Source: Moniliella sp. 'wahieum'
Lineage: Eukaryota
Assembly: GCA_003971905.1 (NCBI GenBank)
Contig: RSEE01000055.1
Location: 62,001-126,000, forward strand
DNA: 64,000 nucleotides
Reading direction: 5' to 3'
Shown: piece after piece, positions 1,525-59,378 of the stretch
How positions within the stretch are numbered: position 1 is the first letter of the stretch
Layout: every line of letters starts with the position of its first letter
Position numbers and translations under genes: made by a program
The notes under the pieces: model-generated
Told to the model about the DNA's origin: nothing
What the model saw: only the letters and a program-made list of their open reading frames with translations
Database searches by the model: none

Positions 1525-2458
1525 CTGGCCCGCAAGGTGAGGGGAGCACGTGCCTGCCTTGGATTTGTCGTGGGCAGGGGTTCGTTGTTCCCAGCCACTC
1601 CTCCCCCCCCCCCGCCTGAACAAAATGGGTTACTTTGTCTTCCTTTTTCTTTACTGGTTTCTTCTCTCTTTCTCTCTTCTTCTCTTTTTCTTCCTTTTCT
1701 CCAGGACAGGACCTCCTACCTGCTCTCTCGCCCTCCCCCCCTCCCCTCTCTGGTTCGGCCCCTGCAGTGGTTGGTTGCCTGAGTGGCTAAAGTGTTAGGT
1801 TCTGCTCTGGACATGTGGACCTTCCATCTTCCTCTTTGCCTTTTTTTCGTCTCTCTTTCCTCCGTTTCCTCCGTTTCCTCCTCGTTTCCTTTCCTCCTCG
1901 TTTTTTCTTCTCTTCTCTCCCTCTCCCCATTTCCTCTTTTCCCCCGTCTGCTCTGTTCGTTCTTTCTCTCCTTCTCTCGCGCTGGTAAGCCTGTGAAAAA
2001 AAAAGAAAAACACGCCGCTACTTTCCTTCCTTTTGGTCCCTCTCTGCGCCCGCGCCGCGCGCTCGCCGCTCTTCAATATTCAATCTTCAGCGCACGTTTT
2101 CCTCCTCTTCGCGCCTGGCTGGTGCTTTGGTAGGCTAGGTGGGGACCTGGTAGCGCCCACGATCTGCTTGGACAAAGGGAGCGGGGGGAGAAGGGGTAGC
2201 AGCTGTTGAGCGTTGGCAATATATAGACAAGTAGGATTCCAGGAGCGCACTAATTCACACTGCAGGAACGCCGGCGAGCGTTAATACGTTTTCTTGGTTG
2301 CGACTCGGTCCGGCTTCACCCGCACAGCTTAACAGAAGTCAGGGGCCCCGAGAGTGTGTGGGTAGTTTGCAGTAACGAAGTTGTGGAATGTTCGTTTCCT
2401 TAGTAGTTTTTACTGCCCATCGCACTGTAACCCACAGGTTAGTACTCCTAGCCTACTA

Positions 2459-2682
2459 TGATGAGACCTGGAGTCCTGATGGTCCGAGGGTGATGCAATC
2501 GCACTGGTGGTAGTGGTGGTCTAAGCCAACCAGCAACGCCTACAGAGGAACAACAAGCAGCGAGTCGTCGCCAGGGGCTAAGCTGCGGAACAAGGAAAAA
2601 CAAGAGAGAGAAAACAAGGAATCCCAGGCTTGAGAAGGAACTGAAGGACATGGCCAAAGCACCAGCCACCCATGGCTCAACA
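2459..2682 (-). mobile_element. Solo LTR of a copia-related family (copy 1)
   Basis: Minus strand reads TGTTGAG...GGTCTCATCA (TG...CA ends). It aligns along its length with 52776-53015 and shares blocks GGCTTAGACC and GCGATTGCAT with the LTR of the intact copia element. TSD imperfect (GCCTA[CTA] left, GCCTA right). Confidence 0.75.
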
Positions 2683-3761
2683 GCCTATTCGGTGAAAATA
2701 GGTTTAACCTTACTGTTGACACGACGGGCCACGGCCATCTTTTCGCAATCGTCCACCGTTCCATGTCCACCCTGCCAGTTCACCGTTTCATAGTCCACAT
2801 ACTGTGTCCAGTGTAACATGCATGTTGTATACATCATGATCTAGTCCAACAGCCCATCATATCAAGCGTTTCAGTCCTTTTTAGTACAACATACACGCCA
2901 AGAAGATTCTAAAATCTGTCTATCTCACACGGTGCGGGCATGTGAGTCCTGTTCTTGATGCAGGTTGCCCGCCGGTGGTTCCGTCCGATGTTCCGTCATT
3001 TGTGCCCCTACTGCATGTGAACAAAGATCGCTGTGGAAAACGTCTTCGCGAAAAGAGACCAGATGGGGTCTTGGATATTGCACCAAGAGGCACAATCCCT
3101 TCTATATCTTCCCTTTTTTTTCATGCATCCGTCAGAAAAGGTCAGGAGTATGAAGAGCTCATTGCAGCATCCCCCCTTTCTCTTCCTCTCTCATTCGCTC
3201 GTTTCACAGTAAAAGTGGAGCTTGACGGCTGCACTGTGATGATAATCCCTTCGTACTAACTGTGTACACATCGAGCCCCCTCCGTGCCATGCAAGGAGCG
3301 GTTTTCTGTGCCGACTTCACATATCCCACCGTTGAACGTTCTTTGACACACTGCTTTTGAGGTGTTTCTCATGAGCTCCTGCTGAGGGAGCTTCTTATAG
3401 AATGTGGAGAGCAAAAACCACACATCTCTTCATTTCTCGATGTTGGGTGCGAGTTCGGAGCAGGGTAGCAAAGTAGTGTCCCAAGCGTCATATCCCGCGG
3501 ATACAGTGTGGTTATCGAGACGGTGATACCGGAGGTCGTTTCCTTCTGAAGACGATGTAACGAGAGCCTTATATTAGGGATGAGGTGCATATCGGTGAGA
3601 TAAAAGCGAAGACTTCGAAGTGTATCTTGTGTTCGTGTGGTGTGCACACAGGTACCAAACACACAATAAAGGTCCAGTAAAAGCCTGATAGGGGGGGGGG
3701 CATGATGTGCAGAGGGGTGGAAAGTCGGTTCTTCGTCTCCTAACACATATCAACATAGATA

Positions 3762-3814
3762 TATCCGTATACAGTAGTATATAGACAATATCCGTACAGT
3801 AGTATTAGACAATA
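3762..3814 (+). repeat. Imperfect tandem duplication of about 27 bp
   Basis: TATCCGTATACAGTAGTATATAGACAA followed by TATCCGTACAGTAGTATTAGACAATA. Confidence 0.7.
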
Positions 3815-5120
3815 GGCCTTCACCCATTGCGCATTTTGGACCGTTACAGAACTTACAGGGCGGGACCCCCCAGCCTCTCCTGATGCATCCAATTCCATCG
3901 CTCGTTCTCACTGAAGGGGGGAATGACGACGACGTGTCGCATCTCCAGCCAATGATTACTATATTTTTGTTGGTTACTCATCAGTGCCTGAGAGAACACC
4001 CCGTTTATGCTTCATTAGCTTCATTCCTCAAGTTCAATGTCTTCGAAGCTTCACAGTCTCGCGCTACAGTCCGCTCACACACTGCAAAAAAGTGAGCACT
4101 GTGCTGGAAAATTGTTTGCCGAACAAGCAAATCATGGGGTGAAAAAGGCGAAATGCGAACGCCGAAAAGATATGCGAGTGTTGCGTGATATTACAGCCAA
4201 AACGACTTCAGGTACTGTTACCGGTGTTACCGGTTACACACTGGTATAGATAGCACAGCTGAAAGCCCTGGGCTGTTATTCTATCATACGCCTTTTGGAT
4301 ATAAAAGCTGAAGGTGTGTGGGGGAAGGGATGCGATGGTGACGTGTGCCATGTGACGAGAGAGAAGCGGCGGTTAGGTGTATTATAGTCGTGAATGGAGG
4401 GGAACCGCGTTTATAACGTTTATATAAACCCACCGTTCACATGCTCCCAGACATTCCTTCTTTACATTGAACGTTGATGAATGCACTGTGCGAGGTTGGA
4501 CTTTGAACTGAATGACGTCTAGAAGCGTGTCCTTCGAAACAATGCGTAGAAGGGCTTGGAACCCTTGAAGCTAAAATGACCATTTTAAGGTGCCAAACAA
4601 GAAGTTTGACGCTTGGAGTGCCAACTTTTTAGTCTTCGAAACTCAAAGTCTTGATGATTTTGAAGAGCTTGAAGCTTGATGCCCCTTTTGAAGCTTTTGT
4701 AAACACGTCGAAAAGAGGGCATCTGCCGACAAAACTCCGACGGTGTGTATCCTATTCCATCATTGATGCGGCGGGCCGGGGTACCAAGTTTCTTCCCTCT
4801 GGTAAAACACGTAGGTACATCTATTCTCTCGTTTTTGCAAGGGCTCATGCACTCAGGCCGCGCTCAAGCCTGGGCGCCTGTGCTCATATCTTCACACTCG
4901 TCAGTGGATGTCGTTGATATCTGTGAGGCATGTGCTTGGCGGTGATGAAGGGGATGGAGAAGGGAGGCTGTGACTGGTGGCAACCGCAGTGGAAAGCACG
5001 TTGAGCTGATGAGTCGATGAGAAGTAATATTGGTTCCCCAGCGAGATGTCCTAGGCGCTCTCCTCAGTTACGTGTTATGATATGCAACGGTGAAGCTGTG
5101 AAGGGAAGACCAGAGCTGGG

Positions 5121-5790
5121 TTGAACGTTGAACGTTGAGTACGTTGAACGTGTTGTTGAACCCAGACTGCGGAAGAGAAAAGAAGTGAAGAGAAGGAGAA
5201 AAAGAGTGGTGCTACTTTTAATAGGCCAGAGTATTATAGGGGTATACTCCCATGTCGTGCCTGCATGTGTAAAAAGATGAGAGCGATATCTTGGGGGGTG
5301 GTTGGCCCTCAGAGCCTTGGTCAACATACTGAGTGTGCTCAGCGCTTGTTGGTCTGTGCGGCCTGAGGTCAGGCCTGAGGCTCATCGATCGTCAGCATCA
5401 TTAGCATCACTACTAATCACTAGTCACTTGTCACTTGTCACGTGTCACTAGGTCACTGCATGTCAATAGCATCACTTGTGGCACATGTGTGTCATAGTGA
5501 ATCATTTAACTGTACTAGGAAAGCGTAGTCGAGACCTCATGCACCTCATGTGTCATGTGGGGATCTCGTTCGACAATCTCAGCGGCTCAGTCTGAGCCTT
5601 GAGAGCCCTGAGCGTCTGAGCCTTGGCCCTGAGCGCTTGAGCCTCCCGAGCGTGAACCCTGAGCGCCCGCCTGCGCCCACTTGAACCGCACATGATGACT
5701 CCAGCACTCAGTACTCCACCTCCTCCAGGTTGAGCAATGTTGTGGGTCGGAGTCATACTGAGCACTTGCACGTGCATCATCGATCATCAT
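5121..5790. repeat. Cluster of TNA-palindrome-TNA heptamer arrays and degenerate copies
   Basis: TGA-ACGT-TGA-ACGT-TGA (5122-5138), TCA-CTAG-TCA (5417-5426), then (GTCACTT)n and a CTGAGC-rich patch at 5581-5670. Confidence 0.8.
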
Positions 5791-8439
5791 GGGTGCCATG
5801 TGCCATATGCCCCGCATGTTTCGGTTTGCGACCACCCCCTCCACCTGCCGCTCAGAGGGTAACGACTCGCGTGCAAGTTGCACCTTTTTCTCGGCGCCCA
5901 GACCCTTTTCGGAGAGGTCTGGTGGCGCTGATCAGTATCAGTCCGGTAGCCCTGTCGTCCAAAACATGCAACCGGGTATACGATTGCGTAATGTGTACAA
6001 CGGAAGCGCGTACGTATGCCGAACAAAAGCCGGTCCCACAGATCCCAGGGCGGTCCCTTCCTGGTCCCTAGCCGAGGAGCACTGCCGTTCCGCCCTACGA
6101 CACCCTTTGGTCTCCTGAGCGGGCCTGAGCGCTGAGTCATCCAAGTCTAATAAAGTTGTTTGAAGCTTGAAAAAGCTACTACAGCAGTTCAATGAAAGAA
6201 ACAGAGAGATACCCGAAACGAATTATGTGATTCCAAAATGGCCTATTCTTGTGGTTAGGGTAGGATACTGGTAGAATCGAACTAGGGAAAGTGATCCAAA
6301 AATGTGGACGACCCCTCCTCTTGCGTGGGGTGATAGAGCTGCGGGGAATTTTCTTGATAACGCAAAGTTTAATGAGTCCTCATCAGGCTGAGCGCCAACT
6401 GCTAGCCGCAAGTATTAGTATAGTCATTTTAGTCACTAAAATCACTATAAAGCTTAAAGAGTCCTAGTCCCCCAGGGTCCAATGTTTAACCACAAGCAAC
6501 ACACATATGAATATGGCACCTTTTAACGACGTGTACCCTTCTCTGAAATGCATGTGGACTCCACACACGTTTCCGTTCTCCACGCACCCCACGAGATACA
6601 CTGAGACTTACACGAGATACGTAAGACTTGCACCTCGTTCGCTCTGGGGGATAAGGCACTCAGGCCAACTCTGCCAAGCAATCTAGCGGTGCGCGCTCCC
6701 TTCCTATACAAATTAATGATCCTTGTGTATATCATTCTGTGAAGCTTGAAGTCGCATGGGTATGTGATCTATCGTGACGCGTGATGAGAGGAGAGACCAC
6801 CCTTTGCTATCCTATCCTTTCAAATTCAGGCGTACCGCGTACTCCTACTACCTTCAATATAGATCTGAGTGACCTCGAAGGAAGAAGCAGAAGCCGGGGG
6901 AAAGGTTTTGATTGTGGATGCCACTCTGCATCTTTCTTCACTGCACATACACTCCGAACTCACTCACATTGAACCTGTGAGAAAGATTAATGAGACGGAA
7001 GGTTAGGATAAGTGCGTGCGGGCTGGGGCGGCGTCACATGCTTCACATGCCTTAAGCGTCCGTGTGTGAAGCCACCGTGTGAAGCCTCCGTGGATTAGAT
7101 GATGGAGGGCATGGATCAACGCACACGGCAACGCGAAAGAGACTGGGAAGAGAGTATGGTAGGGCTGGATACTGCTGAAGGAGAGGATAAGAATGAAGGA
7201 TGAGTGGTTCTGAGGAGAGGCATTACAGGGGAGCAGAGGGAGCGTCCGGGCGGATAAGAGTGATGAGATGCCCGTCACGCAGGATGATGTACTTGGAGCA
7301 TCTCCCCAACAGGTATGACAGAGGGCCTCACCGGCGTCTCTGTCTACGAGCGTCTCTGTCGGGATCAAACCCACTTGATCACCGTTTGAACACCAAGTTG
7401 ACTGGTCCCTGATTTGTTCAAGACCTGTTTTCCCCCTTTGACTATGCCCCCCTTCGTCCTCCGTGTGAGTCAGCTCGCATATGCTCTCGCATATGCTTCT
7501 TCTTCTCCGAGGCATACATACCTCGCCCTCTTTCCATTCGAGATGAATTTGATCCTCATCATTTCCCCCATCTCCATCTCCTGGTAGTCTCCCCTTTGGG
7601 CGGTGCAGCTCCATAACATAATGGTTGATACGCGATGCTGATGATGCGGACTATATACAATGGCAAGTGGACTGCGCTAGTATTATCGAGGGTTTTAAGG
7701 GCGGAGCTGCACCACAGATAATGCCTCCCCCCCCCCCCCAGTATATGTAACGCAAACAAAACGCGAGTGAGAGCAAAGTAGAGGTAAGAAGCATGCGCTG
7801 TGGCTTCTCTCAGCGTCGGTGTCGCTCGTTATATGATAACCGCGTACCGCGCATAACGGAGTAGCTAGTAGTATAGCTAGTAGTCGCTAAAAAAGTCACC
7901 AGGGTCACCGGGGACCCTGAGGCCTCAGCCTGAGGCACCTCTGTTGGGTGTATAGATCATGTGCATCGTATGCACAAAACACGTTAATTGTGGAAAAGAA
8001 TTGAATTGAAGCATTCTCTCGTCGGAGCTGCTCTTCTGGTTGGGCCTCAGGCCTGAGCAACGCTCAACTGAAGGAATGGGGGCTAAGGCAAGGCACTTTA
8101 CTGGGCGATCGGTGGGCGAGCACGATGAATCACGCCAGTATAAGGTCTCTGAACGCGGTTGTCTACTCAGAAGTATCTCTACCCTAATAACCTAAAAGAA
8201 CAATTGCACTGTGCAAAAAGATGAAGAAAGGAAACAGTTATACAACAATAAACGGCCCGGTGGTGGTCCCTCGTTATACTCAAAGCTCAGCCTCTCAGCC
8301 TGAGAGCTCCGCGGAACGCTCAACGTTGTTCATCAACAGGCTTAGTTCCTTCCGCCCCCTCCGCCTCTTCCAGATCGTCGGCACCCCACCATCCCCACCC
8401 TCGTAGCATTGCATCCTTGGCGTTCACTGTGACCTTGTG

Positions 8440-10510
8440 GGCCTTCGCTTGTAACATGTAACATGCAACCGCTGGTGGAAATTTTGTAACGGGCAACAAC
8501 CCGGTTCCGGTATCGGGTAACTCCGGTAACTCCGGTAACCTTCCAAGCATTTTTATAGCCGTCAGCTTCAACATTCAAAATTCAACATACGTGAAGCTTC
8601 CTTGAAGCTTAAGCGCTGAACGTACTCGCGCGCTGAAACCGTCAGGCGTCAGGCTGACGCTGAACCCGAACGCTGATGAGACAGAACGCCTCAGTTCTCA
8701 GATCCTTGACGTACACCCAGCCATGCAGACAGGGGATGTACGTGTGTGTGGCCTGTGTGTTTTGCATGGAAGGGTAAAACGCGTAGCATAAGACAGTGGG
8801 ATGTTAGTTGTTGCTTTTCATCGATGGATTGGATGCGCAACGCGCACAAGCGCACAGGTCTACATTTTATGTATGACCGCCGACCGGTGACCGGTGACCG
8901 GTGACCTGAGATCCTACATTAAGGAACGTGGCGTATTATAAGCACCAACACGTGTTCCTACGACACTGTGTGTCATGTACAAACATTGCCGCAGGTACCC
9001 ACCGCTTGGAGGTCGGCCGGGCACCCCAGTGCGATGGTAATATGAACCCGATGTAGCAGATGTAATGGCTGTAACATTGAGCCAGTGCCTATGAGCGGGC
9101 TGTGCAGGATGGGCGCGTGTCTACATGTGGATTTTATCTTTGGGCCCCCAGGCGCCCGTCCGCCTGGTAGAACCCAACCTCCCATACCTCCGGGGCCGGT
9201 GCATTGGGATTGGAACAGAAGGATTATCGATGAATGATTCATGACGCGCACGCGTGATGACACATGTGACAAGTGACAAGGAAGGTGATGCCGGTGATTC
9301 AGTCCTTCACGACGTGTGAAATCGGAGAGACAAGGTGAATGCAAGTGATAGAGTGATAGTGACTGTACCATGTAATGCACAGTGCATCGTCGTCATCAAT
9401 CAGTACTCAGTAATCATTAATCATTAATCAGGCCCAGGCCAGGCCTGGGCCTGCTCAGGCTGAGCGGCAGAGGGGCTAACCACTTCAGCGCTTCGTCGTT
9501 CAATATATTCAATTCAACGTTGGACATGTGAACGTTAGGGCAGTGACATGTGACAGTGACTAGTGATTGTCAGAAGTCACTAGCTAGTCACTAGTCACTT
9601 GTAGTGATTCTGGTGACCAAATGACTGTATCGACTTTGGGAGCAAGCGAGAGAGGTGACATAGAAGAAGTGGTTGCAGAGAAAGGCGACGTGGTGAAGCT
9701 TCAAGCTTCAAGCTAGCTTGAAGCTCTTGAAGCTTGAAGCTTGAAGACGCATTCGACTGCTATCGGACCTAAGATCTAAGAAGAGATCTAAGAGGCATTG
9801 GATCTGGAGACGCACTTGGTACCTTCCCTTGTGGCACACATGACATCCCACGCTATCACATGTCACATCATGTCATGTTCAAGACGAGGGAAGGGGATGC
9901 GGGTGGGAGGACTAGGTAGCCACCAGCCTGGACCTCTTCAGTCTGCTAACGTACGAAGTGAATGTGAGTTGTGAGTACTGAACGTACTGAGGGTAACTCA
10001 GTACTCAGTACTGAACTCAATACTCACTAATTAGTCACTACTCACTACCCAGATTGCTCCAACCGAGTAACAACCTGGCAGACGAACAAGCTTGAAGCTT
10101 CAAGGTTCAACCTTAACGAGCTTAACGTTCAACGTTCAACGTTCATTAATCATTGAACGTATATTGACCAAGAGCTTGAAGGCATGGAGATGGAGTTTTG
10201 ATCCATGATTCGGTCTGGGTTGGGCGTGTTGGTCGTGGGGCATTGGCATGTTGGGCGTTGGCACGACATCGTAATGGATCAGCGTTCGCGTTCGTCTTTA
10301 CTCGGTACTCAGTAGCTCAGGCCCTCAGGCCTCAGGTGCCCCTCAGTACTCAGTATTGACGAAGTTGAGGTAGTAACTAGTAATTAGAAAACGACGAGTG
10401 TCCTGAGAATCTGACGCGTGACGCGTGGCGGGTGATCGGTGATCGATGATCAAGCTTCAAAGAAGTGAAGCTAGTGACTAGTGATGTGACGCCGTAGATT
10501 CATCATGCAT
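8440..10510. repeat. Densest cluster of TNA-palindrome-TNA heptamer arrays
   Basis: TAA-CATG-TAA 8452; TGA-CCGG-TGA-CCGG-TGA 8888; TCA-GTAC-TCA 9400; TCA-TTAA-TCA-TTAA-TCA 9414; TGA-CATG-TGA 9544; TGA-CTAG-TGA 9557; TGA-AGCT-TCA-AGCT-TCA 9694; TAA-GATC-TAA 9770; chain 10122-10152; TGA-CGCG-TGA 10412; TGA-TCGA-TGA 10440. Confidence 0.9.
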
Positions 10511-11493
10511 CCTGGGGTATCATGCCATCGATCGGATCGGTTATCCCCGATTCGTATATTCGGGCAAATGATGATTTGGGACATGTACGTATGGCAGAGT
10601 GGACGCAGGGTCCAGCAGGGCCCAGCAGCCAGTCACAGGGAGGGCAGGGAGGGTGGTTGGCAGTATCACCTGCTGCCTGTCCTGCGGAGCAGCAGGAGCG
10701 TTACGCGTTACGGGTCGATAATCGATAAGCGCAAGCGCTACCATCGTCGTCATCACCGCCAGCAGCAGCACCAGCAGCACCAGCAGCACAGCAGCACCCG
10801 GCCGTTGTACCACTGGTGTACCTGCGGTACCTGCCGCGTGCTGCCCTGTGGCCCAACACACTTGCCTCTCGCAGTCTGCATCGACACCCCTCGTCCCTGC
10901 TGGACCCTCAGCGTCTTACTGGTGCGTCTTCCCGCTCCCACGTCTCAGACAGGCGACATCACTCGTTACGCGTTACGCGCTACTCGTCACTAGACTCGTC
11001 GTCCTCTCGACATCCCGCATCCCGCGTCAGATCACCATCACCGTGATCTTTCAGGCTGCCCAGCCGTCTCATACATCACATTCATCACGTCCCACAGCCC
11101 GAGCGCACAGGCCTGTGCGCCTGCGCACGCCTGCGCACGCCTGACAGCTGGCCTGCCTGGCGCTCCGGCCGCCATGGATCTCCTCCAACCGCCTTCTTGG
11201 TTCTTCTTGCTTTCTGTCCACCATCCTTCGCCACCCCTCGTCCTCTCCACACTCCACCTCCCACAGACTGGTGGCTCCAGCAGAACGCAGCGGCACAATT
11301 ATACACCCACCCGCTGCCTTTCTTGCTCTCTGTCTCTCGCCCCGTCGACCCCCTCTTCCCAGCCCACCGTTTGCTGCCTGCCCTTCTCTTACTCCCTCGC
11401 GTCTTCCTTCGCCTCGTCTCGTTCCTCCCTGTCCATCTCGTTCGGTTTCCAGCCCGTTTCCCTGTCTTGTTCTGTCGCCACTTTTTGTACGCC

Positions 11494-13823: not shown

Positions 13824-15932
13824 CCCACTCATTTGTCGGCGAAGGTGGGTCGGGTCTGGTTGACCCAAGCGTCGTCGATGGAGGCCTTGCTCAAGCCCAT
13901 TCTAGGCCCGCACAACCGTCATCTTGCCATCGGAACATTCCTTGTGCCTCTGCTCTCGTTGCACTTTACTCTGATCATTTCTCCGTCGCTGTTTATCTAT
14001 GTTGCCTCCTATAACTTTATGCTCCTTTCGCATTTCAGCAAACCTGTGCAACGTTTCTTTGCCTCCTTACTCTCATTCTTCTGCCTCATCGTCGTTCTCA
14101 CCCCGGTTTTGAGCACAGGAAAATGGGGGGTATTCGAAACACGCGCCTGTCTCCTGATGGGTCCCCACCTTTGCCCTTGCTGCTTTGTTACTCCGTCTCC
14201 CTAGATCTGGAAACCCAAGTTACTGTCCATGCTCACACACACATGGCCCACGTTGCGCCTCTCCCTTTGTACTCTGGAAGAACCGATCTGTCCTGCAACC
14301 CGCCAGGCGTGACGGCACGGGCGACTTGGGCTACAACTCCCAGTTTATTTGGGGTCGAACGCTCATCCCCTCCGGTTCGCATCGTTACTACTATGTATTC
14401 CCTTGCCTGCTCTCGCGTTCACGACCAGTGTGCTGTCTTATAGGTTCTTATGCATTGCCGCTATCTGTGTTAATTAATTCTCTTATTGTTCCAGCAATGA
14501 TTAATGAGCACTCGAGTAGGAATCGAGCATAGAACAGCACCGCGTGCATCTCCTTTCTCTCGATCGGCCGTTGGGAGGTTCCATTGTTGATCCACCCTCA
14601 GGAGACTCGCGAAAAGTGTGCTCTCTCCGGGCGCTCGCCAGCTGTTGTTCTTTAGCGACACCTATAGTTTACTTGTGAGATACAGAGGAAGAAAATGTGC
14701 AGGTACATATACTTGTGCGCGGCCCCAAGTGTCATTGCCCCCTGCCTCTTTGATCTTCCAGTAACCCTCCGTAGTAGTTGCACCCCCGACCATTGGCCTC
14801 CGGGATCCTAGGTTTCAGAACGAGGGAACTTTCACACGCACCAAAACTGGCACTGATAGTCCTGATGCAATGACAGGATATGATGAAATTGTTGCCGGCA
14901 TAGAGCCCCGCCGTGAAATGCCCGGCGGGAAGCTAAGAAAGCTAACACAGGGTCAATACAGAGCGTAATGCTGGCGACACGGAGATCGAGGAGGGTCAAC
15001 AAAATGAGGGGCGCCTCGAAAACATGAAAAACGTCGAGCGGGAGTGGCACTTTTTGGAACAACACGCTACTAAATGACTGGTGAGGCTGGGCCAGATCGA
15101 CCGTACTGACGTTTTTCGCGTGCATCATATGGACAACTGCGGGGTGAGATCGGTGAGGTATGAGAGATCCTCGTCATGCATTATGCACAAGAGTTTGTTC
15201 GGGTGACCGGTGACCGGGGAGCACCTCCTGCACCTTTGAGCCGTGTCCTGGCCAAGCCCGTTCCGGCGAAACGTGAGTGATCCAACTGGAGACGTGTTCC
15301 ATATATTAGGTTACCGGTTACCCCCCTACGGCCGTGTTGATCGGTGATCGTGTTTCCCTCGGCCTCAGTCCTAGTAATACTAGTTAATAGGCAATTGAAC
15401 CGAAGACATGGATCGATGACATGGATGACACCTATTACCCGTATACTTCTATCATCTTTAGTCACTAGTCCCTTCCGACTCTATACAGAGACAATTATCG
15501 ATTATCGATCCAATATAGTACACACTAATAGGACCCAACTTTTCTTAGACCGGATGAGATCTGAGATCCGGTGAGAAAACAGACGTCTTTCCCTTTTTAG
15601 AGCTTGGTGGTGAGTACGGTGAGCGTTGGTTATCCTCTCCCACACAGGAGATGGAAGCGACAGAAACAATGCTACACAGTCGCTGCGGATCGATGAGTGC
15701 CACGGATGAGTTGATGGCTTTCCGCAGGGTTTTGTTGCGAGGCATCATTAGTCATGATCGGAGGTGTTGAGGGACTGGAGACCCACGACTGAATACTGAG
15801 TACTGAGTATTGATGAGAGTCGGATGTCGATCGAGATGAGAAGGACTCGAAAATGTGATACCTGCCAGGATGTAGCGAGGACAGTACTGTAATGAAAGAG
15901 TTTTCCCATCACAGTAATGAAACAGTACATCT

Positions 15933-21512: not shown

Positions 21513-21930
21513 CATCTGGATCGGCCGTAGAGCCCCCCCCCCTAACCCAGCTTCTGATCCCCCTATTGAAAGCGCCCCCCCCCCGGGCCGCATTGGTCCA
21601 TAGCGCAAGCGCTGGCGGAGGCCTCGTTACGCGTTACGCATCATTGACGGACGTGTCAAAGGCCATGGCGCGCCTGATCCGTGATGTCATCATGCTTGAA
21701 ATGCATTTTATGGCCGATCCCTGGTCCACTTGTTGTCTCGTTATCCGCGCGTTGCGGGTTCTTACTCGGCATACTATAGTGGAGCGATCGTTGAGACGCC
21801 TGGTCTCTAGCAAGACCAATAAGCAAGTCTTGTTGGTTCAAGTATCAAGTACAACGAAAGAGATGAGGGGGAATAGGAGAGGGGTTGCCAGGTGGTAAGA
21901 CAAGGAGAGGGCATGCAAGAGCAAACAGAG

Positions 21931-28109: not shown

Positions 28110-29479
28110 GGTGCTCTCCCTATTCCAACGGAAATGCTATGATTGGCACAGGCAGTTGTTCCATCCTTAGTCTTACGGTATATTAGCTCTGGATCGAAGG
28201 TGGTGCAATCCAGGTCGTCAACAGCGAGTCGATTGCCATAGTAGATGATGATGGCAACCGTCGCCTGCTCCTAGATGCTGGTACGAATGCAGATGCAGAT
28301 GCAGATCCGGACATTGTGGCTCCGACCCCCCCCCTTGTACTCCAGATGAGTACTATCTCTGCTCTGTGTTGCGCTCGAGGGGAGTGTTTATTACAGGCAC
28401 AGTCGATTGTGGACCGCTGGCAGTCTAATAGTGTCCGCTACATTTCTCTGCTTGGTCGTATCTCCCTCCTCCCACCTCATCTCGCGCCTGCACCTCATCC
28501 GGATGAAGGGAAAACGATGACGATTGGCGCTCTCTTCTGGCGAGGATGCATATGAGCGTGCTCAAGCTGCAGTGAGCAGGGCCGATGAATTTAAGGCGGT
28601 GCGGCGTGCATATTTGGGTCATTGCATGCTATAAGCGGTGGTCAGGTGACGGTGATGAGGCGCAGGCGTACCCAGCACTGCCTCAGGACTCAGACTGGGG
28701 GCTCAGGAGTACTGAGGTGAGGGCTACTGGTACTGAGGCTTGGCACTGGCTGCTCAGTGGCGGAGGGGAGAGGGCGGCGGAGGAAGGAAGCGAAGCTTCA
28801 AGCTTCACTCTGGAGGCCGTTGGGATGTGAGAAGCATGGATGGGATCCGCGGAGCCAGAGTGGCGACACGTTTTCAGGCAGGCGGAGAAGGGCCCAGTCG
28901 AGAGCGAGGCAGGGAGGAGGGGCGCGCGCGGTGGCTGATCGACTGATCGACCATCTACCTACTCGGTTGTCGCATGCTGGGCGTCCATGGCGTGCGCTGG
29001 CGTGTCAGGATGTGTCGATCCAACCAGTCTGAGATCCAAGCGCTTACAGAGCGCTTCCAGGCCCGGCTTGGCGCCCGAGCGATGATCGATGACGCACCCA
29101 CCCGCGCACTGCGCCGCACACCGCTCGCTTGGCTTCGGGGCTCGCATCAGTCCACTGTGGGCCCCGCGCAGCCGCGCTGGGGGCGGCGGCATGGGGGCAG
29201 TGCTGCCTGTGCTGCGCGGCGCTCAGCGCAGGGCAGCTGCCCCCGTGCGGCGGAGGAGCTGCGCATGGCGTGCGGGCGCCTGCTGGCTGCCGTCGCCTTG
29301 CTCGTCCCTGGTCGCTGCCTCGCCCCCTTCTCCTCGTCGCCAGCCCGCGTCCAACGCGCTCCTCTCCACCACCGCTGCGCCCCCACAGCAGCCCCCGCTG
29401 GTGCCAACGCCACCTCGCCCCCCACCCCTCCACCCCCTCCCCCCCTCCCCCTCCCTCCCCCTCCCCCCCATCCCCCGCC

Positions 29480-32394: not shown

Positions 32395-33378
32395 ATGTGT
32401 TTGCATGATCCCTAGAGCGCCTGCCCCACTATGTGGCGGCGGCGCGGTGCCACGAAACGAGGATACGAAGACGCCAACCCAGTTGAGCTGATAGACCAGG
32501 GGAACAGGTGACTGTGTTGAATGGAGGCCGAGCGAATGGGGGTCGACTGATGCAACTGATGGGGCCGTTGGGCAGATGCTTAAGCTGCGACATCATATCC
32601 ACGCCCCTCACGGTTGCCCCGGCCTCCTACCATGTCGGATAATCGAAGCCCCAGGGCAAAGCGGAAGCGCCCCCTCGATTGCCCCGCCCTTGCCTGCGCT
32701 GGACCTGTTGGACCTCCTGCTGAGGGTGTGGAAGGCCACTGCAGAGAAGAGAATAGACAGGGGGGATGTGGAAAGTGTATTGCGTCACATAGGAGCTGCC
32801 GAGGCTAGGGGGATTCCTGTGCGCTCCAGGAAGGAGGATGTTGTCTGAAGCTAGCTTGAAGGCCAGCACCGAAAGGCAAGGGGGTTGAACGTTGAAGCTT
32901 TAAGGCGCTCAACGTCACAACTTAGACAGCTCAGGGAAGATGAACGATTACATGAACGGGTAACAAAGGAGGGTAGCGGGAATCTGTAGGGTCAAACAAC
33001 AAGTCTGGCATCTACATCGATCACGAGCCTCTCTGTGCTTTGCAGGGCTCGGAACTAAGAGAGCGTGTTTGACGTAACGAAAAAGTATATCATCAGGACC
33101 CGGGCCCAAGGAGAAGACGGGCGAATACAAGAAAGATATCTACGGAGCCAGCATGCCCAAGCAGGAGAGAGAATGGCCGACCACGTGGACCAACGGGGCG
33201 GCCAAACGGACACCGATCCCCGTTCTCGGTTCACATCGCACAGGAAAAGAGACAGGTGCACCGGGAAAAAAAGGAAAAGGAGAGTAGGCACCGGCTGAAT
33301 ATGATGAGAGAACTGAGATTGGGGCCAAAGTGTGGAGGACGAGAGAGGCAGGGAGTGGGAGGGGACGATGTGTCGGTT

Positions 33379-35405: not shown

Positions 35406-36009
35406 GGTGAACCAACAGGAAAATGGGAGCAGTCTCTTCTTTAAAGCACCGCACCAAGTAACACAGCAGGAGAGTGGGAGGGCAGAGGACCCTGCGGCGG
35501 AAGAAGCGGGTGGTGGTGTGGGGAAAGCGTATCGTGTGCAGACGGGGCCGAGACGCCGCATCAGACCATTGTCTTGCCCTATGATGGATCCGATCATCGA
35601 TCATGCCCCTCGTTGGCCCGCACGCCGCCAGCACACAGCAGCAGGCCCACCCACGGGCGAGGCGACAGAAGGATGCTGCTCGGTCCGGTGCGCACGTTCT
35701 CTGCGAAGAGGAGAACAGCGTGTCCATCCCGCCCCAGCGCCCAGCCTAGAACGCCAGCCGCCCCATGCCCCGCCTGGGACCATGCTGCGCTGGGCTGCCG
35801 GCCCCTGCCCATCACCTCTCCCCCCTCGGAGGCCAGATGGCAGAGACGGCGTACACGCGAGCACACGCCCCGGAGTACATATTGGCGGTATAAACCACCT
35901 GCTTGCCCAATGGCCGCTCGGCTGAAGCGCGCAAGGCGGGCAAGCCATAGCGCACGTGCCGTACGCCCCACACGGCCCAGCACCCGGCCACTGTCCCTGC
36001 AGCATCGCG

Positions 36010-36990
36010 TGTCACATGTCAGTGGTCACCGGTTGCATGTCACATGTCACCGGTCGCAGGGGAATTCACATGCAGAGGTCCAACGCCCAACTTTTTCCAC
36101 CTTCATCCACCGGCCGCCCCCGCTCTTCTCCGTCGGCACAACCGTCCGTTTGGGTCAGCGCTTTTAGCCGGCCGAGCCGAGAATCGAGCGGCACAGAGAG
36201 GGTTGCCCTGGGTTACCCGGATGGAAAAGCGTTGCTTCTTACCCAGCTGGCTGCGTCCGTGGCCAACCAGCCGAGAGAGATCAACGATCAACATCAAAAC
36301 AACCCAATAACAGGGCAACAATTAACTTACTGTAGCGCCCCGCCCTGCCTCCTACCCTGTAACCTGAACCTGTAACCTGTAACCGGTAACCGGTAACCCC
36401 GCACCCCACAGACCAGCCCAGGTCCCAGGTCCCAGGTCCCAGGGCCACAGCGCAAAAATGCGTGGAGCGTAACAACAGAGCTCGCCGAGCCAGAAGGAGA
36501 CCCAGGCCTCACAGGCATCATGCATCAGGCCTCAGGCCTCACAGTGGCCTCAGGCACGCAAAGGACGACGGCTGATCGAATCGAGCTGATCGACATGATC
36601 GCTTGATCGGCTCGGCGCCCCGAAGCTCCCCTACCGCCTTCCTTTCTTACCCCACAGACTGTCTCTCTTTTCTTGGCCTTTTGGGTGTTTGGCAAATTTG
36701 ACGCTTAGACGCAGGGAAGAAAAGCACACTGGGCATGCACCACGCGTCAGACACCATGCAGCCGGCAGGTCGTCGATCATCATCGTTCCTAGGCCTTTAG
36801 GCCTTATGGCCTTATTGCAGGAACTGGGTGAGAGTGTGTTGAATGTTGCTACAGTCAGTTGATGAACGTTGAACGTACGTTGAACGGCTGAGGTCTGTTG
36901 AGACGTTGACGGTAGACGCGTTGCCGGTTGGTAAACCGTTGGTACTAATCGTAGACGAAGAAAGGTTGACGCAACGTTGATGCGTCGCGC
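36010..36990. repeat. Cluster of TNA-palindrome-TNA and other 7-bp arrays
   Basis: TCA-CATG-TCA-CCGG-TC 36040; TAA-CCGG-TAA-CCGG-TAA 36380; (CCCAGGT)3 near 36417; TCA-TGCA-TCA-GGCC-TCA-GGCC-TCA 36518-36541; TGA-ACGT-TGA 36863. Confidence 0.85.
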
Positions 36991-48668: not shown

Positions 48669-49813
48669 CGGCGTAAAAGAGGCGGGTGAGGGGGAGGAGG
48701 GACGGGGGTGGAGTGGTGGATGAGAAGGGAGGGTTGGTGCCATGGACAGCCCCACCTGTCGACAGGGGAGCAGGTGGGCTTGCACTAGCCAGGGGAATGG
48801 AGGGCTCGGGGAGTTTTCCCTGTGCTCGGCGCGTTCTGAGGACATTGGTTAGACTCGCCCCGGGCGGAAGGCGAGCAGGCGGCACAGGGCCAGTGCTCGG
48901 CGCCTTTCCAGTCGGCCCGGCCCCTGCTCCGATCACCGACCGGTCATCGATCCGATCCGTGTTACTCATTTGCATTCCAGAGCTCCATGCCGCCGAATGC
49001 AATGTTGCAATGCCGGCGGCTCCGGGCGGATCACGTAATTCTGCCTCGAAGGGAAGGGGCATTGCCTGCGTTGTCCAGCCGCTGTTTCCGTGGGATTGTA
49101 TGTTCCTCTGCGGTTGCTGCCGCGTGGCCATAGACGCGCACACCCACGGACTCCTGGCTGATGCCAATGGTCCGGGGGGGGGGGCGGGGGGCGCTAGAGA
49201 ACGGCGGTGGCGTGGCACTCCTGTTGGCAGATTGGATTAACAGGCAGGCCGTGGTTGGGCTGCTTTCCGACAGGGGGCACTGAGTACTGAGCTCCTGAGC
49301 CTGAGACGGGATGAGACGAGTGACTAATACAAAACGTGACTATAGATGGGATGCTCTGGCACTGTTTTGAAACGGACACCGGCGCGCTAACCCTTGCTGT
49401 GTGGTGGTATATAAATGTGACCTGACCGACGCAGCCAGTTTGGAGAGGGACGATGTCGATGACCCGGCGTAGCGTGAGCGTGGGCGTGAGCGTGCGACGC
49501 GGGCGAGGGGTGGCGGTGGCGGTTGTCGGCAGCGGTGGCGGTAGCGGCAGCGGCGCAGGCGGCCCCGCGGGTTCCCGCCCCCCCCCCCCCCAGGACAGCA
49601 GCAGGAAGGAGGCCGAAGGCGTGACGTAAGATGCGGGGCAATTTCTCGGCAGGGCGCCAGTGTGGGAAAGCGAACATTTCACCGGGTGCGTGTGCTGCTG
49701 GCGCCGGGCAGCCCCTGCCGTCCTGAAAATTCTCAAGCATCTCCACGCCAGCAACGCACGCCTCAGCGCCCGCGACTCCCCGGCCCTCCTTCTCCTCCAC
49801 CTCCCTCCCCGCC

Positions 49814-52775: not shown

Positions 52776-53015
52776 TGATGAGACCTGGAGTCCGGATGGT
52801 CCTTTTGAGGGCGATGCAATCGCACTGGTAGTGGTGGTGGTCTAAGCCAACCAGCAACGCCTACAGAGGAACAGCAAACAGCGAGTCGCCACCAGGGGCT
52901 AAGCTGCGGAGCAAGGAAAAACAGGAGAGAAAAAACAACGGCACTCCCAGGCCTGAGGAGGAATTGAAGGGACATTGGCCAAAGCACGAGCCACCTGAGG
53001 CCTGATGGCTGAACA
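52776..53015 (-). mobile_element. Solo LTR of a copia-related family (copy 2)
   Basis: Colinear homologue of 2459-2682. Minus strand reads TGTTCAG...GGTCTCATCA. No recognisable TSD. Confidence 0.75.
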
Positions 53016-55649: not shown

Positions 55650-56718
55650 GCAGAACAGGCCGCCCTTTACCTATTACTACTGTAGATTCCCTCCTTCTGT
55701 TGATGTTGTTCTGATGTTACCGTATATATAAGCAGCCCTGTCTGAGGCTTGCTGGCGGTAACCCTCACCGCCCAACCCACGTCTTCCCCCGGCCGACTTC
55801 CCTCTTCACTCTTTACCCTTAATACGCTTACGAATTTACGATTAGGCGTCGCGCCGCTATCAACTACCAGCTTGTGGAGCGCAAACGCAGTTCTGGGTGG
55901 TGACAACTAAGGATACTCGTGCATGACGGCAGGGTCTTATAAAGCGCGATTACTCAATGCTGGGACAATCAATGTGTCTAATGTCCAGGTCGTCGTCGAG
56001 GATGGGTCGGCGCGGGCAGCAAGGCACATGCTGGGCAGCGCAGTGCGGTCGATCGGTGACCGTAGCGAGACGAGGCGAGGCAAGGCGGTCTCTCGTCAGC
56101 GCATCAGACGAGGCGAAAGAGATACCAGGCGCCACGGTGGAGCGGAGCAGGGTTCCAGCGAAGGCGGCTCTTGAAATGTTACAAAACGAGGTCTGCGGAG
56201 CTAAGCGCTAATCAGCCCCGGGGTTAAGCTTTAAGCTTTAAGTGTCCCATGTCACTGGGAGCGGTCCATCGCGTTATCCGAACTACGCCAGAGCACAAGC
56301 CTCAGCAGGGCAGTTGCCTAATAACATGTAACGAGAACAAAAGCGCAGCCTAGAAGCCGGCGTGTATGGTGGAAACATTCATATCAGCGCATTGCAATCG
56401 ACCATAGAGACGAGGCACATGCAAGCAAGTGGGAGAGGGGGATGAGAACGGGAACCGTTGCACGGGGGATCGATATCAAAGAGACGAGGGCCAGGGTACT
56501 GCGGGGGGACGGCGCCTCGTCTCCAGCTCAGGCGCACCAGCACATGCACGCCCTTCCAAGCAAAGTCAACATGGTAGGTGGATACGAAGAAGGAATGGGT
56601 GGGTCTCAAGCCAAGCCCCCCAAAGCCAGCAGTGGCGGCGGGGCACCAACGAACGACACGCTTCCGGCTTCCAACAAAGAGGCAAGCGCTACCCAACCAA
56701 CTTCAGCTTGGGCCGACC

Positions 56719-57745
56719 TTACGCCGTCGAGCCCTTCTTGAACGTTCCGACAATGTTGGCAAAGTAAGCCCCCTGCTTCTTCGCCACCACCTTCTCGTCC
56801 GGTTGGACCTGGCGCGATCCATCCGACTTGGACAGCGTCGAGGCGCCCACGGACTGCCACCAAGCACCACGTCCGTCTGAGAAATCTCTTCAAACTGGTA
56901 CCCAATCGGGACAAAGTTGATGCCGTGGTGCACGAGCCAGGGGATGGTAGTAACGATCGTCGTCTCCTGTCCGCCATGCTGGCCAGCAGTGGACGTAATC
57001 AGGCCGGCAAACTTGCCCACCAACGCACCGTCGCCCACAGTCCACCGGTCTGGTCAAAGAACGTGTCGACCTGAGCTGGGAAGCGGCCAAAGCGCGTTCC
57101 AGCACAAAGGTACCCGTCAAACTCTTTCAGCGCATCGGGCGTGATGGCGGGGTAGGGCTGCTGTTGATGCGCGTACATCTTGGCCAGCACCTCGGCCGGG
57201 AGCGTCTCGCCAAAGCTAAGATTTCACCGTCGCGCCCGTCGACTTGACGCCCTCGGCAGCAGCCTTGACAAGCTCGTCAATGTGGCCCCACAGCTAGATA
57301 TGCATGATTCAAATCCGGTTAGCACATCCAATATGTTACAACTGTGGTCGTTGGGACAGTATGGGGGCACGTACCGAGTGGCCAATGATGGCAATCTTTC
57401 AGGGTTCGTCCCGGTCTTGGTTGCAGCCGCCGACGTGTCAGCAGCCGCGCCGGTAGCACCAGCGCCAGTCGCCGCACCGGAAGTTGCAGCAGCCGGGGCG
57501 GCCGCAGGAGTCGCAGTAGCAGGAGCGGCAGCAGCAGGAGCGGCAGCAGCAGGAGCGGCAGCAGCGGCAGCAGGAGCAGCGGCAGCAGGAGCGGCAGGAG
57601 CGGCGGCAGGGGCAGCAGCAGGAGCGGCCGCGGGCAGCAGCAGCCTTGCTAGCAGGCGCCGAGGCGGAGGCTGACTTGGTGCCCGCCACGGAGCCAGAAG
57701 CGCTCTTGTCCTTTTTGCCGAACAGCTTCTGAAGAACTTGGACAT
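56719..57745 (-). CDS. Flavodoxin-like NAD(P)H:quinone oxidoreductase (WrbA/Pst2 family) with an Ala/Pro-rich N-terminal extension
   Basis: 'ETLPAEVLAKM', 'GTRFGRFPAQ...FFDQTGGLW', 'GKFAGLITSTAGQHGGQETT', 'HHGINFVPIGY', 'GGSPW', 'DGSRQ'. Confidence 0.92.
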
Positions 57746-58218
57746 GGTGGGCCGGAACGAGAGGCGGGGGAGTATTAGGTGGTGGTGGGACGGTGGAAGG
57801 ACGGAAGGGGTGGGGGATGTAAGTAGGGATTGGGGCGGGAAGGGTGGCGAGAGCAGCGTGTGCGACAAGCCGGGCCGGGAGAAAAGGCCCGTGTGCGCTT
57901 GGGGCGTTGGGGCTGGCACGGTGCATGGTCCGAGCACGGACAATCGTTAATCGATGAGCTAATGCGCTGGTTATACCCGGCGGGTCGGACCGTAGCTGCG
58001 TAGCGTCCGGGGGCCGGGGGTGGCGGCAGGGGGGCAGTGTGACAGCCGTCGGCGTCTGCGCTGCCGCTGTGCCTCGCCTGTCGATCCCTGCTGCAAACAC
58101 AGTTCGATGCGCCGCCACCGAGCCGCCCCGTGCCCAGCAGCGGGCGCACACTGCCGCCGTCCGTCACGTGCGAGGGCCGCCCGGCATGCAGGCGTGGCAT
58201 GGCACGGGAAGGCGTAAG

Positions 58219-58242
58219 TCACTAGTCATGCATCATGCATCA
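58219..58242. repeat. Composite heptamer array TCA-CTAG-TCA-TGCA-TCA-TGCA-TCA
   Basis: Read directly from the sequence. Confidence 0.9.
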
Positions 58243-59378
58243 TGCATGCACGCAGCACGGGGGCAGTTGGGTGCCGCCCAGGATGTCGGCCAGCGCCAAG
58301 GCGGGCCAAAGTACCAACCAAGCCCGGAGCCCGGTGGGTATGCGCAGTATCCACCCGTGCTGCGTGGGTGCGCTTAACTCCGACCCGGTCCGGCCAGGCA
58401 CAATGCACACCTGGCGGTGGCGGTCGGAAGCGGAACGGAGGGAGATGAGGCCTGAGGGTGCTGCCCCAAACCCTAACGCCCATACGACCTAAGAAGAAGC
58501 GCACCGCCCCTCCAATACCCACCCTCCATACAGCAAGCAATAGTTAATAGCTGCGTCCCCCTGCCCAAAGCGAAAAGATTGCAACCCACATGGCTCTATC
58601 TCACATCTCTCTCGCATCGCACTAGCTACTCCCTACACCCTCGCTGCCTGCTCCTGCTCGCCAACTCGTTTGCACCCACTGTTCACCTCGTGATTCCGGC
58701 CGGCTGAAACAGCGTGTGAATAGCCCACACCTCCGACCTTTCCACCGCGGCCCAGACCTCAGATGAGGCCTACCCCCCTGGTGACCGTGGAGAGTTTGCG
58801 CTCAGCCTACGGGCAGGGGTGCGAATCAAGGCGAACGTTGAACGTACTGATCGTTGATGCATGGCGGATGAAGCTTGAAGCGACAAGAGGAGAAAATCGA
58901 TTGCCAACTTGTCCTGTCCGTTTCCCAAGCGCATACAGAACTGTAACCCCACACGCCTAGACCGTGGAGCGATGGACACCTCTCTTCCACTCTGTAGCCT
59001 TGCCTTGCCTTATGCTGTACTACGGACCCAGGCGCGGCTAGGTATACTACGGAATGCCAGGCCGGACGCACGAGGTGCACTGCGCTGGCGACGCACTGGG
59101 CCCAAGATGAATGGAATGGTGCGCCCACGGCGTGAGGCGTGGGCCGCGTACAGGTTAGCGAGAACGCAAGGGAAAGTTCGAGGCGAGACAGTGGGGGTGG
59201 TAGGAAATAAGAAGCAAAGGGAGGGAGAGGAGCAAGGGAGGAGGGAGGAAGCAAGGGTGGGAGCCAGGAGAAGAAAAAAAAAGGGGAGATGCCACAGGTC
59301 ACCCTCGCCCCACCTCCCTCCTCTCCCCTCCCCTTTCCCTTTCTCTTTCTCTTTCCCCCTCCCTCTCCCAGCCCGACA

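Follow-up and report, generated by a model that had tools for sequence, protein, structure and literature searches.

Intergenic DNA within a 64-kb stretch of the genome of Moniliella sp. 'wahieum' (contig RSEE01000055.1, positions 62,001 to 126,000; termed here the window, with coordinates counted from its first nucleotide) is full of short heptameric arrays, in which the trinucleotide TNA recurs every 7 bp around a 4-bp palindrome. The structure of these arrays and their possible origin are the subject of this report. Judging from its protein matches, the window comes from the nuclear genome of a basidiomycete belonging to the Ustilaginomycotina: among named matches, a TOM70-like open reading frame (ORF) at 50637-51836 is closest to Tilletiaria anomala (70% identity), with other smut-related yeasts and smuts at about 60-65%, and an ORF for an MFS transporter on the minus strand (34276-35745) matches Tilletiaria anomala at 60% and Tilletia at 48%. 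Genes recognizable through Pfam encode a dynactin p150/CAP-Gly protein, a WD40 protein, a TPR protein, an F-box protein and an ArfGAP; no tRNA genes were found in the window. Its GC content is 58-66% in parts with long ORFs, as opposed to about 50% in ORF-poor parts.

Within the window there are 144 10-mers of the form TNA-NNNN-TNA in which both trinucleotides carry the same N, and in 86 of these the spacer is palindromic, whereas only 16 of 256 tetramers (6%) would be expected to be so. Blockwise Markov simulations produce 2.2 +/- 1.5 such palindromic words at order 1 (maximum 8 of 100) and 2.5 +/- 1.5 at order 3 (maximum 6); even at order 5, where parts of the repeats are already built into the model, only 19.7 +/- 4.9 are produced. 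The excess of TNA-palindrome-TNA words is far beyond chance. The pattern had first been pointed out in an initial annotation of the sequence, whose 14 example coordinates all prove to be exact--each is a TNA followed by the palindrome named for it and by the same TNA--and whose estimate of more than 30 occurrences in the first 16 kb was conservative, inasmuch as 48 of the 86 palindromic words lie there. Its statement that 14 of the 16 palindromic tetramers occur agrees with the count (AATT and TATA are the two missing from the window), and the check that it proposed, of palindromic against non-palindromic spacers over a Markov background, comes out in favor of the former (86 of 144, with about 2.5 in simulations).

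The enrichment is specific with respect to the arms, the spacing and the period. When the arms are any of the other 60 triplets, palindromes fill 93 of 1873 spacers (5.0%), which is the chance level. Same-N TNA pairs number 144 at a spacer of 4 nt and between 18 and 82 at every other spacer length from 0 to 12 nt, with no enrichment of TNA pairs at spacers of 2, 3, 5 or 6, and when arms from 2 to 7 nt in length were combined with palindromes of 2, 4 or 6 nt, nothing was enriched apart from TNA with a 4-nt palindrome. Likewise, no inverted patch of 1 nt or 3 nt was seen. Exact arrays of at least two copies number 56 at period 7 and 12 at period 8, so that the tandem period of 7 noted in the initial annotation is indeed over-represented.

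The arrays are more fully described as a 7-bp odd palindrome, xyTNAy'x' (where x' and y' are complementary to x and y), that is repeated head to tail; equivalently, the unit consists of a 6-bp palindrome, A-y'x'xy-T, to which a single free base is added. Of the products that are common, the smallest is the 12-mer xyTNA-y'x'-xyTNA. Both TNAs carry the same N in 86 of the 102 TNA-palindrome-TMA words, and complementary Ns in 7; the arrays are therefore direct repeats, the two strands of which differ only at N. There are 170 exact period-7 runs that are 12 nt or longer, of which 71 have an odd-palindromic unit; 65 of these are of the form xyT-N-Ay'x', leaving 6 of the 71 with some other core, and the 65 TNA arrays comprise 30 different canonical units. 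Period-7 repeats lacking a TNA core also occur: an array of CCCAGGT x3.9 at 36417-36443 lies in the same intergenic region as TNA arrays, and there are a few further non-TNA heptamer duplications, for example at 5793-5806.

The spacer depends upon its neighbors, as the initial annotation had proposed. If xy denotes the two bases before the first TNA and cd the two bases after the second, then one or the other flanking dinucleotide predicts 75 of the 86 palindromic spacers. In 22 words the spacer corresponds only to the reverse complement of xy followed by xy (the upstream form, A) and in 23 only to cd followed by its reverse complement (the downstream form, B); the two forms are equally frequent, as is expected of the two strands of one process. 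Another 30 words, situated inside arrays, satisfy both rules, and 11 of the 86 palindromes lack a 2-nt match to either flank. Among words with non-palindromic spacers, 9 are plain tandem duplications (spacer cd+xy), two of these apparently inside one TTAA array; 2 have a spacer consisting of the reverse complements of xy and cd; and 47 show neither a palindrome nor a flank match, near the roughly 30 expected by chance.

This dependence upon the flanks bears on whether the heptamers are selected functional elements, such as clusters of sites for dimeric transcription factors (with bZIP-like TGA/TCA half-sites), structural spacers or spacers rich in stop codons. The arrays are indeed intergenic, their core is typically TGA/TCA (with G or C as N in 50 of the 65), and a period of 7 would place TGA in all three reading frames. 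However, no consensus is common to the 14 palindromes and 30 units, in which only T-N-A is constant; the variable part is dictated by neighboring unique bases; the half-site is repeated directly rather than inverted; and the arrays lie both 5' and 3' of genes--upstream of some, downstream of others--with their longest stretch in a 14-kb ORF-poor region. Selected function is thus very improbable, and the initial annotation's rejection of a single protein-binding motif gains support from the same two facts, namely the 14 palindromes and a variable part that follows unique flanks.

The lengths of the exact runs, the phases of their ends and a 14:2 polarity argue instead for a directional +7 insertion into nnTNA sites, and they speak against a protein-binding motif as well as against a plain duplication that later decayed. 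Among TNA odd-palindromic period-7 runs, the counts at 9, 10 and 11 nt (62, 25 and 13) fall off as expected of chance; at 12-17 nt, however, there are 19, 14, 9, 4, 7 and 2 runs, and longer runs occur at 19, 20, 21, 22, 25 and 76 nt (3, 2, 1, 2, 1 and 1, respectively). This second population starts at 12 nt, which is 5+7; a 7-bp duplication alone gives at least 14 nt. The 19-, 20- and 76-nt runs are compatible with 5+7k. Thirteen of the 19 12-mers lie in the predicted phases (that is, as xyTNA-y'x'-xyTNA or its reverse complement, which are 2 of the 7 possible), and 70 of 130 run ends fall either directly after TNA (34) or directly after y'x' (36). Over both strands there are 140 words of the form xyTNA-ab-xyTNA, in 105 of which ab is y'x'. 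When the nine constraints of the 12-mer rule are scored on both strands, 105 words satisfy every one of them, as against about 0.2 expected. In ORF-free DNA (defined as lying outside any stop-to-stop ORF of at least 150 codons), a further 60 words meet eight of the nine constraints (3.3 expected) and 137 meet seven (39 expected); such near-misses are the tail of decayed older events. When exact events are iteratively and greedily un-inserted, 74 of them (518 bp) can be removed, as against 0.6 +/- 0.7 in order-3 simulations, after which 12 of the 86 palindromic words are left.

The arrays are also polar, in that new perfect palindromes stand beside a surviving imperfect old target at one end: a perfect unit is followed by a last unit differing at its sixth base in 14 cases, and the opposite order is seen in 2. 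Hence the arrays do not stem from perfect duplications that decayed at random. The polarity bears on a rival explanation, in which a 7-bp target-site duplication (or some other exact 7-bp duplication) occurs at targets that are already palindromic (xyTNAy'x') and is then trimmed to 12-13 nt by point mutation, without any inverted templating. It can be derived that a single mutation in a 14-mer made of two such palindromes (P7-P7) gives 12-mers in exactly the two phases observed. Moreover, the base two past the run end fits the periodic extension in 14 of 34 cases (that is, more than 25%), so that some 12-mers are interrupted 14-mers, and the transposon Galileo proves, according to the accessible part of the source, that 7-bp odd-palindromic targets exist (PMC4168063). 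Yet decay predicts 11-, 12- and 13-mers in equal numbers in the matching phases, where 2, 13 and 6 are found; only 2 parental 14-mers occur in phase (0,6); the variant unit should come first as often as last, in place of the 14:2 seen; and perfect 7-bp palindromes would make up only 1 in 16 of TNA sites. Duplication of pre-existing palindromes is, on balance, quite improbable.

Paralogs within the window serve as a stand-in for population data, although only two pairs exist: the long terminal repeats (LTRs) of a Copia-type retrotransposon and a pair of solo-LTR-like repeats. The Copia LTRs are 98% identical and differ by three 1-nt gaps, with no 7-bp indel. In the second pair, near the repeat ends, the copy at 52776-52995 reads CCTGA-GG-CCTGA where the copy at 2459-2670 reads CC-CA. 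The initial annotation had described a +7 insertion in which 5 bp are duplicated and 2 further bases are templated in inverted order; run lengths, phases, polarity and this paralog sustain that geometry, and a stereotyped +7 insertion thus appears well supported within this one window.

The arrays are unevenly distributed, with 53 of the 65 in the 17.7 kb of ORF-free DNA (3.0 per kb) and 12 in the other 46.3 kb (0.26 per kb), where they lie mostly at ORF edges; none occurs inside the 5.6-kb Copia element. This absence from ORFs and from a young retrotransposon of the same contig is hard to reconcile with a sequencing or assembly artefact, as are the diversity and shortness of arrays set in unique sequence and a flank-dependent rule unlike any known error mode, so that an artefact is scarcely credible. 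Array density is highest at 1787-16350, a stretch of about 14 kb that is mostly ORF-poor, has a GC content of about 50%, adjoins the retrotransposon and is interrupted at 10.5-13.7 kb by long ORFs (58-62% GC). No Pfam matches were found in this stretch, which could be a candidate gene desert or centromere-like region. The individual arrays are catalogued in Table 1 together with the larger repeats.

Table 1. Heptameric arrays, chains and interspersed repeats of the window.
Position	Feature	Details
2072..2084	13-nt period-7 run	unit ATTCAAT
2459-2670 and 52776-52995	solo-LTR-like repeat pair	~215 bp, 89% identical
4226..4237	12-nt run	unit GGTTACC
4666..4679	14-nt run	unit CTTGAAG
5120..5151	GTTGAAC array	19-nt exact run (5+7x2) and degenerate tail
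5412..5457	chain, TCA every 7 bp	spacers CTAG, CTTG, CTTG, CGTG, CTAGG
5776..5788	13-nt run	unit GATCATC
6125..6171	two 12-nt runs	GCTGAGC 6125-6136; CTTGAAG 6160-6171
6448..6459	12-mer, predicted phase	unit CTTAAAG
6740..6784	two 12-mers, predicted phases	CTTGAAG 6740-6751; CGTGACG 6773-6784
8450..8465	16-nt run	unit TGTAACA
8874..8906	TGACCGG array	4.7 copies; left end degenerate
9393..9431	in-phase TCA chain	spacers TCAA, GTAC, GTAA, TTAA, TTAA; nested events
9541..9599	TGA/TCA chain	spacers CATG, CTAG, CTAG-CTAG (+11 form at 9577); self-folding
9694..9746	AAGCTTC array head-to-head with AAGCTTG array	
9708-9725	perfect 18-bp palindrome	CTTCAAGCT/AGCTTGAAG; TCA array meets TGA array, N switches strand
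9769..9868	13-nt runs	TCTAAGA 9769-9781; TGTCACA 9856-9868
9963..10048	ACTCAGT array	with non-palindromic TGA/TCA-cored heptamer duplications
10087..10154	CTTGAAG, GTTCAAC (22 nt) and AATCATT runs	single chain
10316..10383	CCTCAGG, ACTCAGT and AGTAACT runs	
10412..10484	CGTGACG, GATGATC and AGTGACT runs	
10698..10728	CGTTACG and GATAATC runs	
10964..10979	16-nt run	unit CGTTACG
14496..14507	isolated 12-mer AATGA-TT-AATGA	in unique sequence
15176..15322	CATTATG, GGTGACC and GGTTACC runs	
15459..15568	AGTCACT, GATTATC and TCTGAGA runs	
15788..15813	ACTGAGT array	first unit variant
15933-21512	Copia-type LTR retrotransposon	217-bp LTRs (TGTTGG...TTACA); 5-bp target duplication CATCT
21625..21639	15-nt run	unit CGTTACG; just outside Copia 3' LTR
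28793..29092	two runs	CTTCAAG 28793-28807; GATGATC 29080-29092
32319..32394	longest array, TGAAGCT x10.9	100% identical; 76 nt = 5+7x10 plus 1
32884..32896	13-nt run	unit GTTGAAC
35591..35604	14-nt run	unit GATCATC
36010..36050	two TGTCACA runs	
36356..36398	AACCTGT, then GGTAACC array	AACCTGT a plain duplication
36512..36541	CATCATG and CCTCAGG runs	one common TCA
36863..36886	GTTGAAC run	with +11 form TGA-ACGT-ACGT-TGA
49279..49291	13-nt run	unit ACTGAGT
52994..53005	12-mer CCTGA-GG-CCTGA	end of solo-LTR-like repeat; absent from paralog near 2662
56200..56242	GCTAAGC 12-mer, CTTTAAG 19-mer	
58217..58247	single TCA, two templates	CTAG upstream (template: upstream AG); TGCA x3 downstream (template: downstream TG)
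58446..58457	12-mer	unit CCTGAGG
58833..58881	GTTGAAC and CTTGAAG 13-mers	end point of the initial annotation

Adjacent arrays often hold TNA in phase while the palindrome changes, and such chains, as well as hybrid spacers such as GTAA, would be accounted for if events of the two mirror forms recurred at TNA sites both pre-existing and newly made. As single strands the arrays fold into hairpins of 6-bp helices parted by N.N mismatches: the mismatch is G.G in the 76-nt array, whose fold of -27.2 kcal/mol has a z-score of -6.3 (0 of 200 shuffles being as good), and the chain at 9541..9599, a second cluster, folds with z = -2.9. Foldability of this strength is what would be expected of ordinary micro- or minisatellites, in which self-complementary heptamers form hairpins on the nascent strand that favor slippage, as in CNG triplets; consistent with this, the units run head to tail in copy numbers from 1.7 to 10.9, and perfect copies reach 10.9. 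The likeness to CNG triplets extends to tandem units that pair with themselves but for one mismatch per unit. The CNG unit, however, is 3 nt rather than 7, and slippage acts upon an existing tract, unlike the flank-templated insertion seen here. Slippage, moreover, cannot begin with fewer than two full copies, yet products of 12-13 nt are the commonest; it predicts neither fixed run ends nor polarity nor the templating of spacers by unique flanks; and hairpin stability would prefer G.C rather than T.A beside the mismatch. As an account of the arrays, slippage is therefore improbable: it probably contributes to the growth of long arrays but cannot be their origin, and the initial annotation was right to set it aside on this point, given the run lengths, fixed run ends, polarity and flank templating.

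These features suggest that the heptamers are scars of a recurrent, stereotyped insertion that arises via a hairpin-ended staggered break, and that they are not functional motifs; this reading is preferred here, albeit with a confidence that stops slightly short of an even chance. What the sequence shows is the product: an event at 5'-xyTNAcd-3' yields xyTNA-y'x'-xyTNAcd or, in its mirror form, xyTNAcd-d'c'-TNAcd, and in either form it adds a net 7 bp, duplicates TNA with the same N and creates a 4-bp palindrome templated by the dinucleotide on one side. To arise, such a product needs two ends that both bear xyTNA, an inverted copy of the last 2 nt of an end, and a register that does not vary. 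A double-strand break could provide these if both ends kept the 7-bp sequence xyTNAcd, staggered as in a target-site duplication, and if the ends were capped by hairpins that were then opened 2 nt off the tip. The opened ends would consist of duplex ...xyTNA and TNAcd..., with the 4-nt self-complementary overhangs cdd'c' and y'x'xy, and upon joining of the ends in register one overhang would stay as the spacer. The break-repair enzymology behind the +7 scars is inferred from its products.

The proposed scheme would generate both mirror forms in equal numbers, and it makes room for two further products. A hairpin opened at its tip would give a plain duplication, of which the 9 words noted above are candidates. 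Survival of both overhangs would give a +11 form, TNA-cdd'c'-y'x'xy-TNA: words of the type TNA-pal4-pal4-TNA (where pal4 is a 4-nt palindrome) number 6 among 107 TNA-8-TMA words, as against 0.42 expected, and two of these are informative, their palindromes departing from the symmetry of the target itself; in both, the palindrome that matches is as predicted, with the first agreeing with the downstream flank or the second with the upstream one. Since every event would make a new TNA site, repeated hits would build in-phase chains with changing palindromes, while slippage of the hairpin-prone arrays would probably add or remove whole units. The most economical source would be excision of a cut-and-paste element, or an element-derived nuclease, with a 7-bp target centered on T-N-A and with a cleavage chemistry that forms hairpins on the flanks, as in hAT, Transib and MULE elements.

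Known systems offer partial parallels. In V(D)J joining, hairpins are opened about 2 nt from the tip, giving 4-nt overhangs and P nucleotides of 2 nt; a length of 2 nt is what off-tip opening of a hairpin is expected to leave, and it is the length found here. With V(D)J P nucleotides and with the footprints of hairpin-forming transposons the scars share both a target on each side of the junction and a short inverted copy of the flank: the target is directly duplicated on both sides in the 105 exact 12-mers, and inverted flank bases occupy the junction in 105 of the 140 words and in 75 of the 86 palindromes. Such transposon footprints are left by end joining after cleavage via hairpins on flanking DNA, a mode that the accessible part of one report ascribes to hAT, Transib, RAG and MULE (PMC5499845). 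The lengths of their known duplications differ from the 7 bp seen here, being 8 bp for hAT, 5 bp for Transib and 8-10 bp for MULE.

Elements of the P superfamily come closer in length. What remains after P-type excision, however, is parts of the ends of the element and not flank bases in inverted order. As far as the accessible part of the source goes, the target duplications of Galileo have a length of 7 bp and follow an odd-palindromic consensus, GTANTAC (PMC4168063), so that Galileo and 1360 resemble the present units in being 7 bp, odd-palindromic and centered on a free N. They differ in that their core is A-N-T and their outer bases are fixed, whereas here the core is T-N-A and the outer bases are free, and in that they are known from Drosophila; moreover, the palindrome here is largely made by the event rather than pre-existing in the target. 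A Tc1-like footprint, with 2 nt from each transposon end and a 3-bp TNA duplication, was considered as well and rejected, because there are 14 kinds of palindrome and they follow the flank.

Several observations nevertheless weigh against excision scars from hairpin-ended breaks. The window yielded no resident element that combines terminal inverted repeats with a 7-bp duplication, a search for inverted ends of 14-16 nt with at most 3 mismatches, flanked by duplications of 3, 5, 7, 8 or 9 bp, having returned only matches within arrays or chance pairs. Apart from the Copia reverse transcriptase, a Pfam scan likewise found no DNA transposase domain either among the 106 ORFs of at least 170 aa in the window or among 50 ORFs of at least 70 aa at 1.7-16.4 kb. 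Hairpin footprints and coding joints are normally heterogeneous and rare, whereas here the TNA core is fixed, only +7 and a few +11 forms are enriched, and the density of 3 scars per kb of non-coding DNA is very high if these are transposon footprints. In the paralog pair the net difference is +8 rather than +7, so that a second small change is needed, and its direction is deduced from the structure. Finally, the evidence comes from one 64-kb window of one genome.

Two asymmetries, both noted post hoc, belong with these difficulties, since a symmetric 7-bp target leaves them unexplained. Of 37 oriented arrays, 20 have a T directly after the terminal TNA (background 0.25; p = 2e-4, uncorrected for the post hoc look), as do 18 of 34 run ends; the opposite side shows no corresponding A. 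In 11 of the 14 cases in which the following base is again in keeping with the palindrome, this T is the sole departure from a perfect last unit, and the first position of non-palindromic spacers in general shows no T preference. (A longer P tract as the source of this T was rejected, the next base being N' in only 5 of 20.) The mirror forms, for their part, are uneven, standing at 7:15 to the left of 16 kb and at 11:4 to the right of 28 kb (Fisher p = 0.02), which would fit a dependence on the direction of replication or transcription.

An inherently asymmetric process that would accommodate both the terminal T and the uneven mirror forms is self-templated fold-back synthesis without hairpin caps, the first candidate of the initial annotation, which is likened to the snap-back synthesis of polymerase-theta end joining. 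Here a 3' end ...xyTNA would fold back on itself, or meet an identical end, with T.A and A.T pairs across the unpaired N, and be extended by y'x' up to the end of the template, after which it would be joined to the other end and xyTNA would be filled in. The product and its polarity would be identical, the self-complementary outer bases of the core would be accounted for, and insertions that are templated both directly and inversely are, in the accessible part of the source, a hallmark of theta-mediated end joining (PMC9779921). Self-complementarity alone, however, would permit CNG, GNC and ANT cores, yet TNA dominates; such cores are nearly absent (6 of 71 are non-TNA), and fold-back would therefore still need a TNA-specific cut. 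That one T.A pair could prime synthesis across a 1-nt loop is sterically doubtful on general grounds, and the +11 forms are not predicted. Events of the template-switch or quasi-palindrome type and polymerase-theta insertions do share the inverted copying of sequence from a few bases away (PMC9779921, in its accessible part, for polymerase theta), but comparable insertions usually vary in size and have no fixed core, whereas here there are always 2 inverted and 5 direct bases at TNA, with length and composition fixed rather than variable as would be expected of polymerase theta. Fold-back synthesis is accordingly considered unlikely, even though the window data do not separate it from the hairpin scheme, which was the other candidate of the initial annotation.

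It is also conceivable, if rather doubtful, that the +7 insertions stem from no conventional resident transposon at all and instead from an endogenous, lineage-specific process that recognizes T-N-A, adds exactly 7 bp and reuses its own products. If so, this process would be a major builder of intergenic DNA in the fungus, its signature would provide a molecular clock for non-coding sequence, and the strand asymmetry (that is, the terminal T and the switch in orientation) would be tied to replication or to a one-sided nuclease.

Full-text literature on fungi (including Ustilago, with whose TCA/TGA-cored heptamer repeats in U. maydis the initial annotation had proposed a comparison) and on other organisms did not yield the pattern, though most subscription journals fall outside its coverage and a description may be in print. 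Palindromic microsatellites in Fusarium mitochondria are palindromic repeats linked to indels in non-coding DNA, but they are mitochondrial, larger, and treated as putative mobile elements akin to double hairpins, and no 7-bp TNA rule is described for them in the accessible part of the report (PMC7218506). The heptamers look like the products of an apparently undescribed mode of insertion, perhaps akin to break repair of the hairpin or P-nucleotide type but unusual in specificity and scale. Few eukaryotic insertion processes are this stereotyped. If it extends genome-wide, it would constitute a mutational signature that can be read directly from sequence through three fixed features (the site TNA, the size +7 and the templating rule); it would imply that ends are processed through hairpins or fold-back across an entire genome, account for the origin of much intergenic sequence in compact fungal genomes, and offer a direct genetic handle, inasmuch as +7 events can be scored as frameshifts. 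Because the arrays are self-complementary, they are also likely sites of fragility and length polymorphism and thus useful as markers.

Other features of the window are as follows. The internal coding region of the Copia element, with RVT_2, Pol beta-barrel and SH3-like domains, is broken into at least 5 ORFs, and the element is therefore probably degenerate. To the eye, the Copia LTR in reverse complement is similar to part of the solo-LTR-like repeat. The dynactin p150 homologue (38518-42496, minus strand) has its CAP-Gly domain at 41858-42496 and the two halves of its Dynactin domain at 39368-40267 and 38518-39480; it is spread across several ORFs, which implies introns or frameshifts. Within a GC-rich, ORF-dense region, a C-rich low-complexity tract at 29413-29481 is CCCCTCCC-like (52 nt at 68% C, according to TRF). 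Two sets of tandem repeats lie within long ORFs, namely a 15-nt unit repeated 7.1 times at 53311-53416 and GCAGCAG-type units of 9 to 42 nt at 57419-57644; they are of in-frame length and probably encode repeats.

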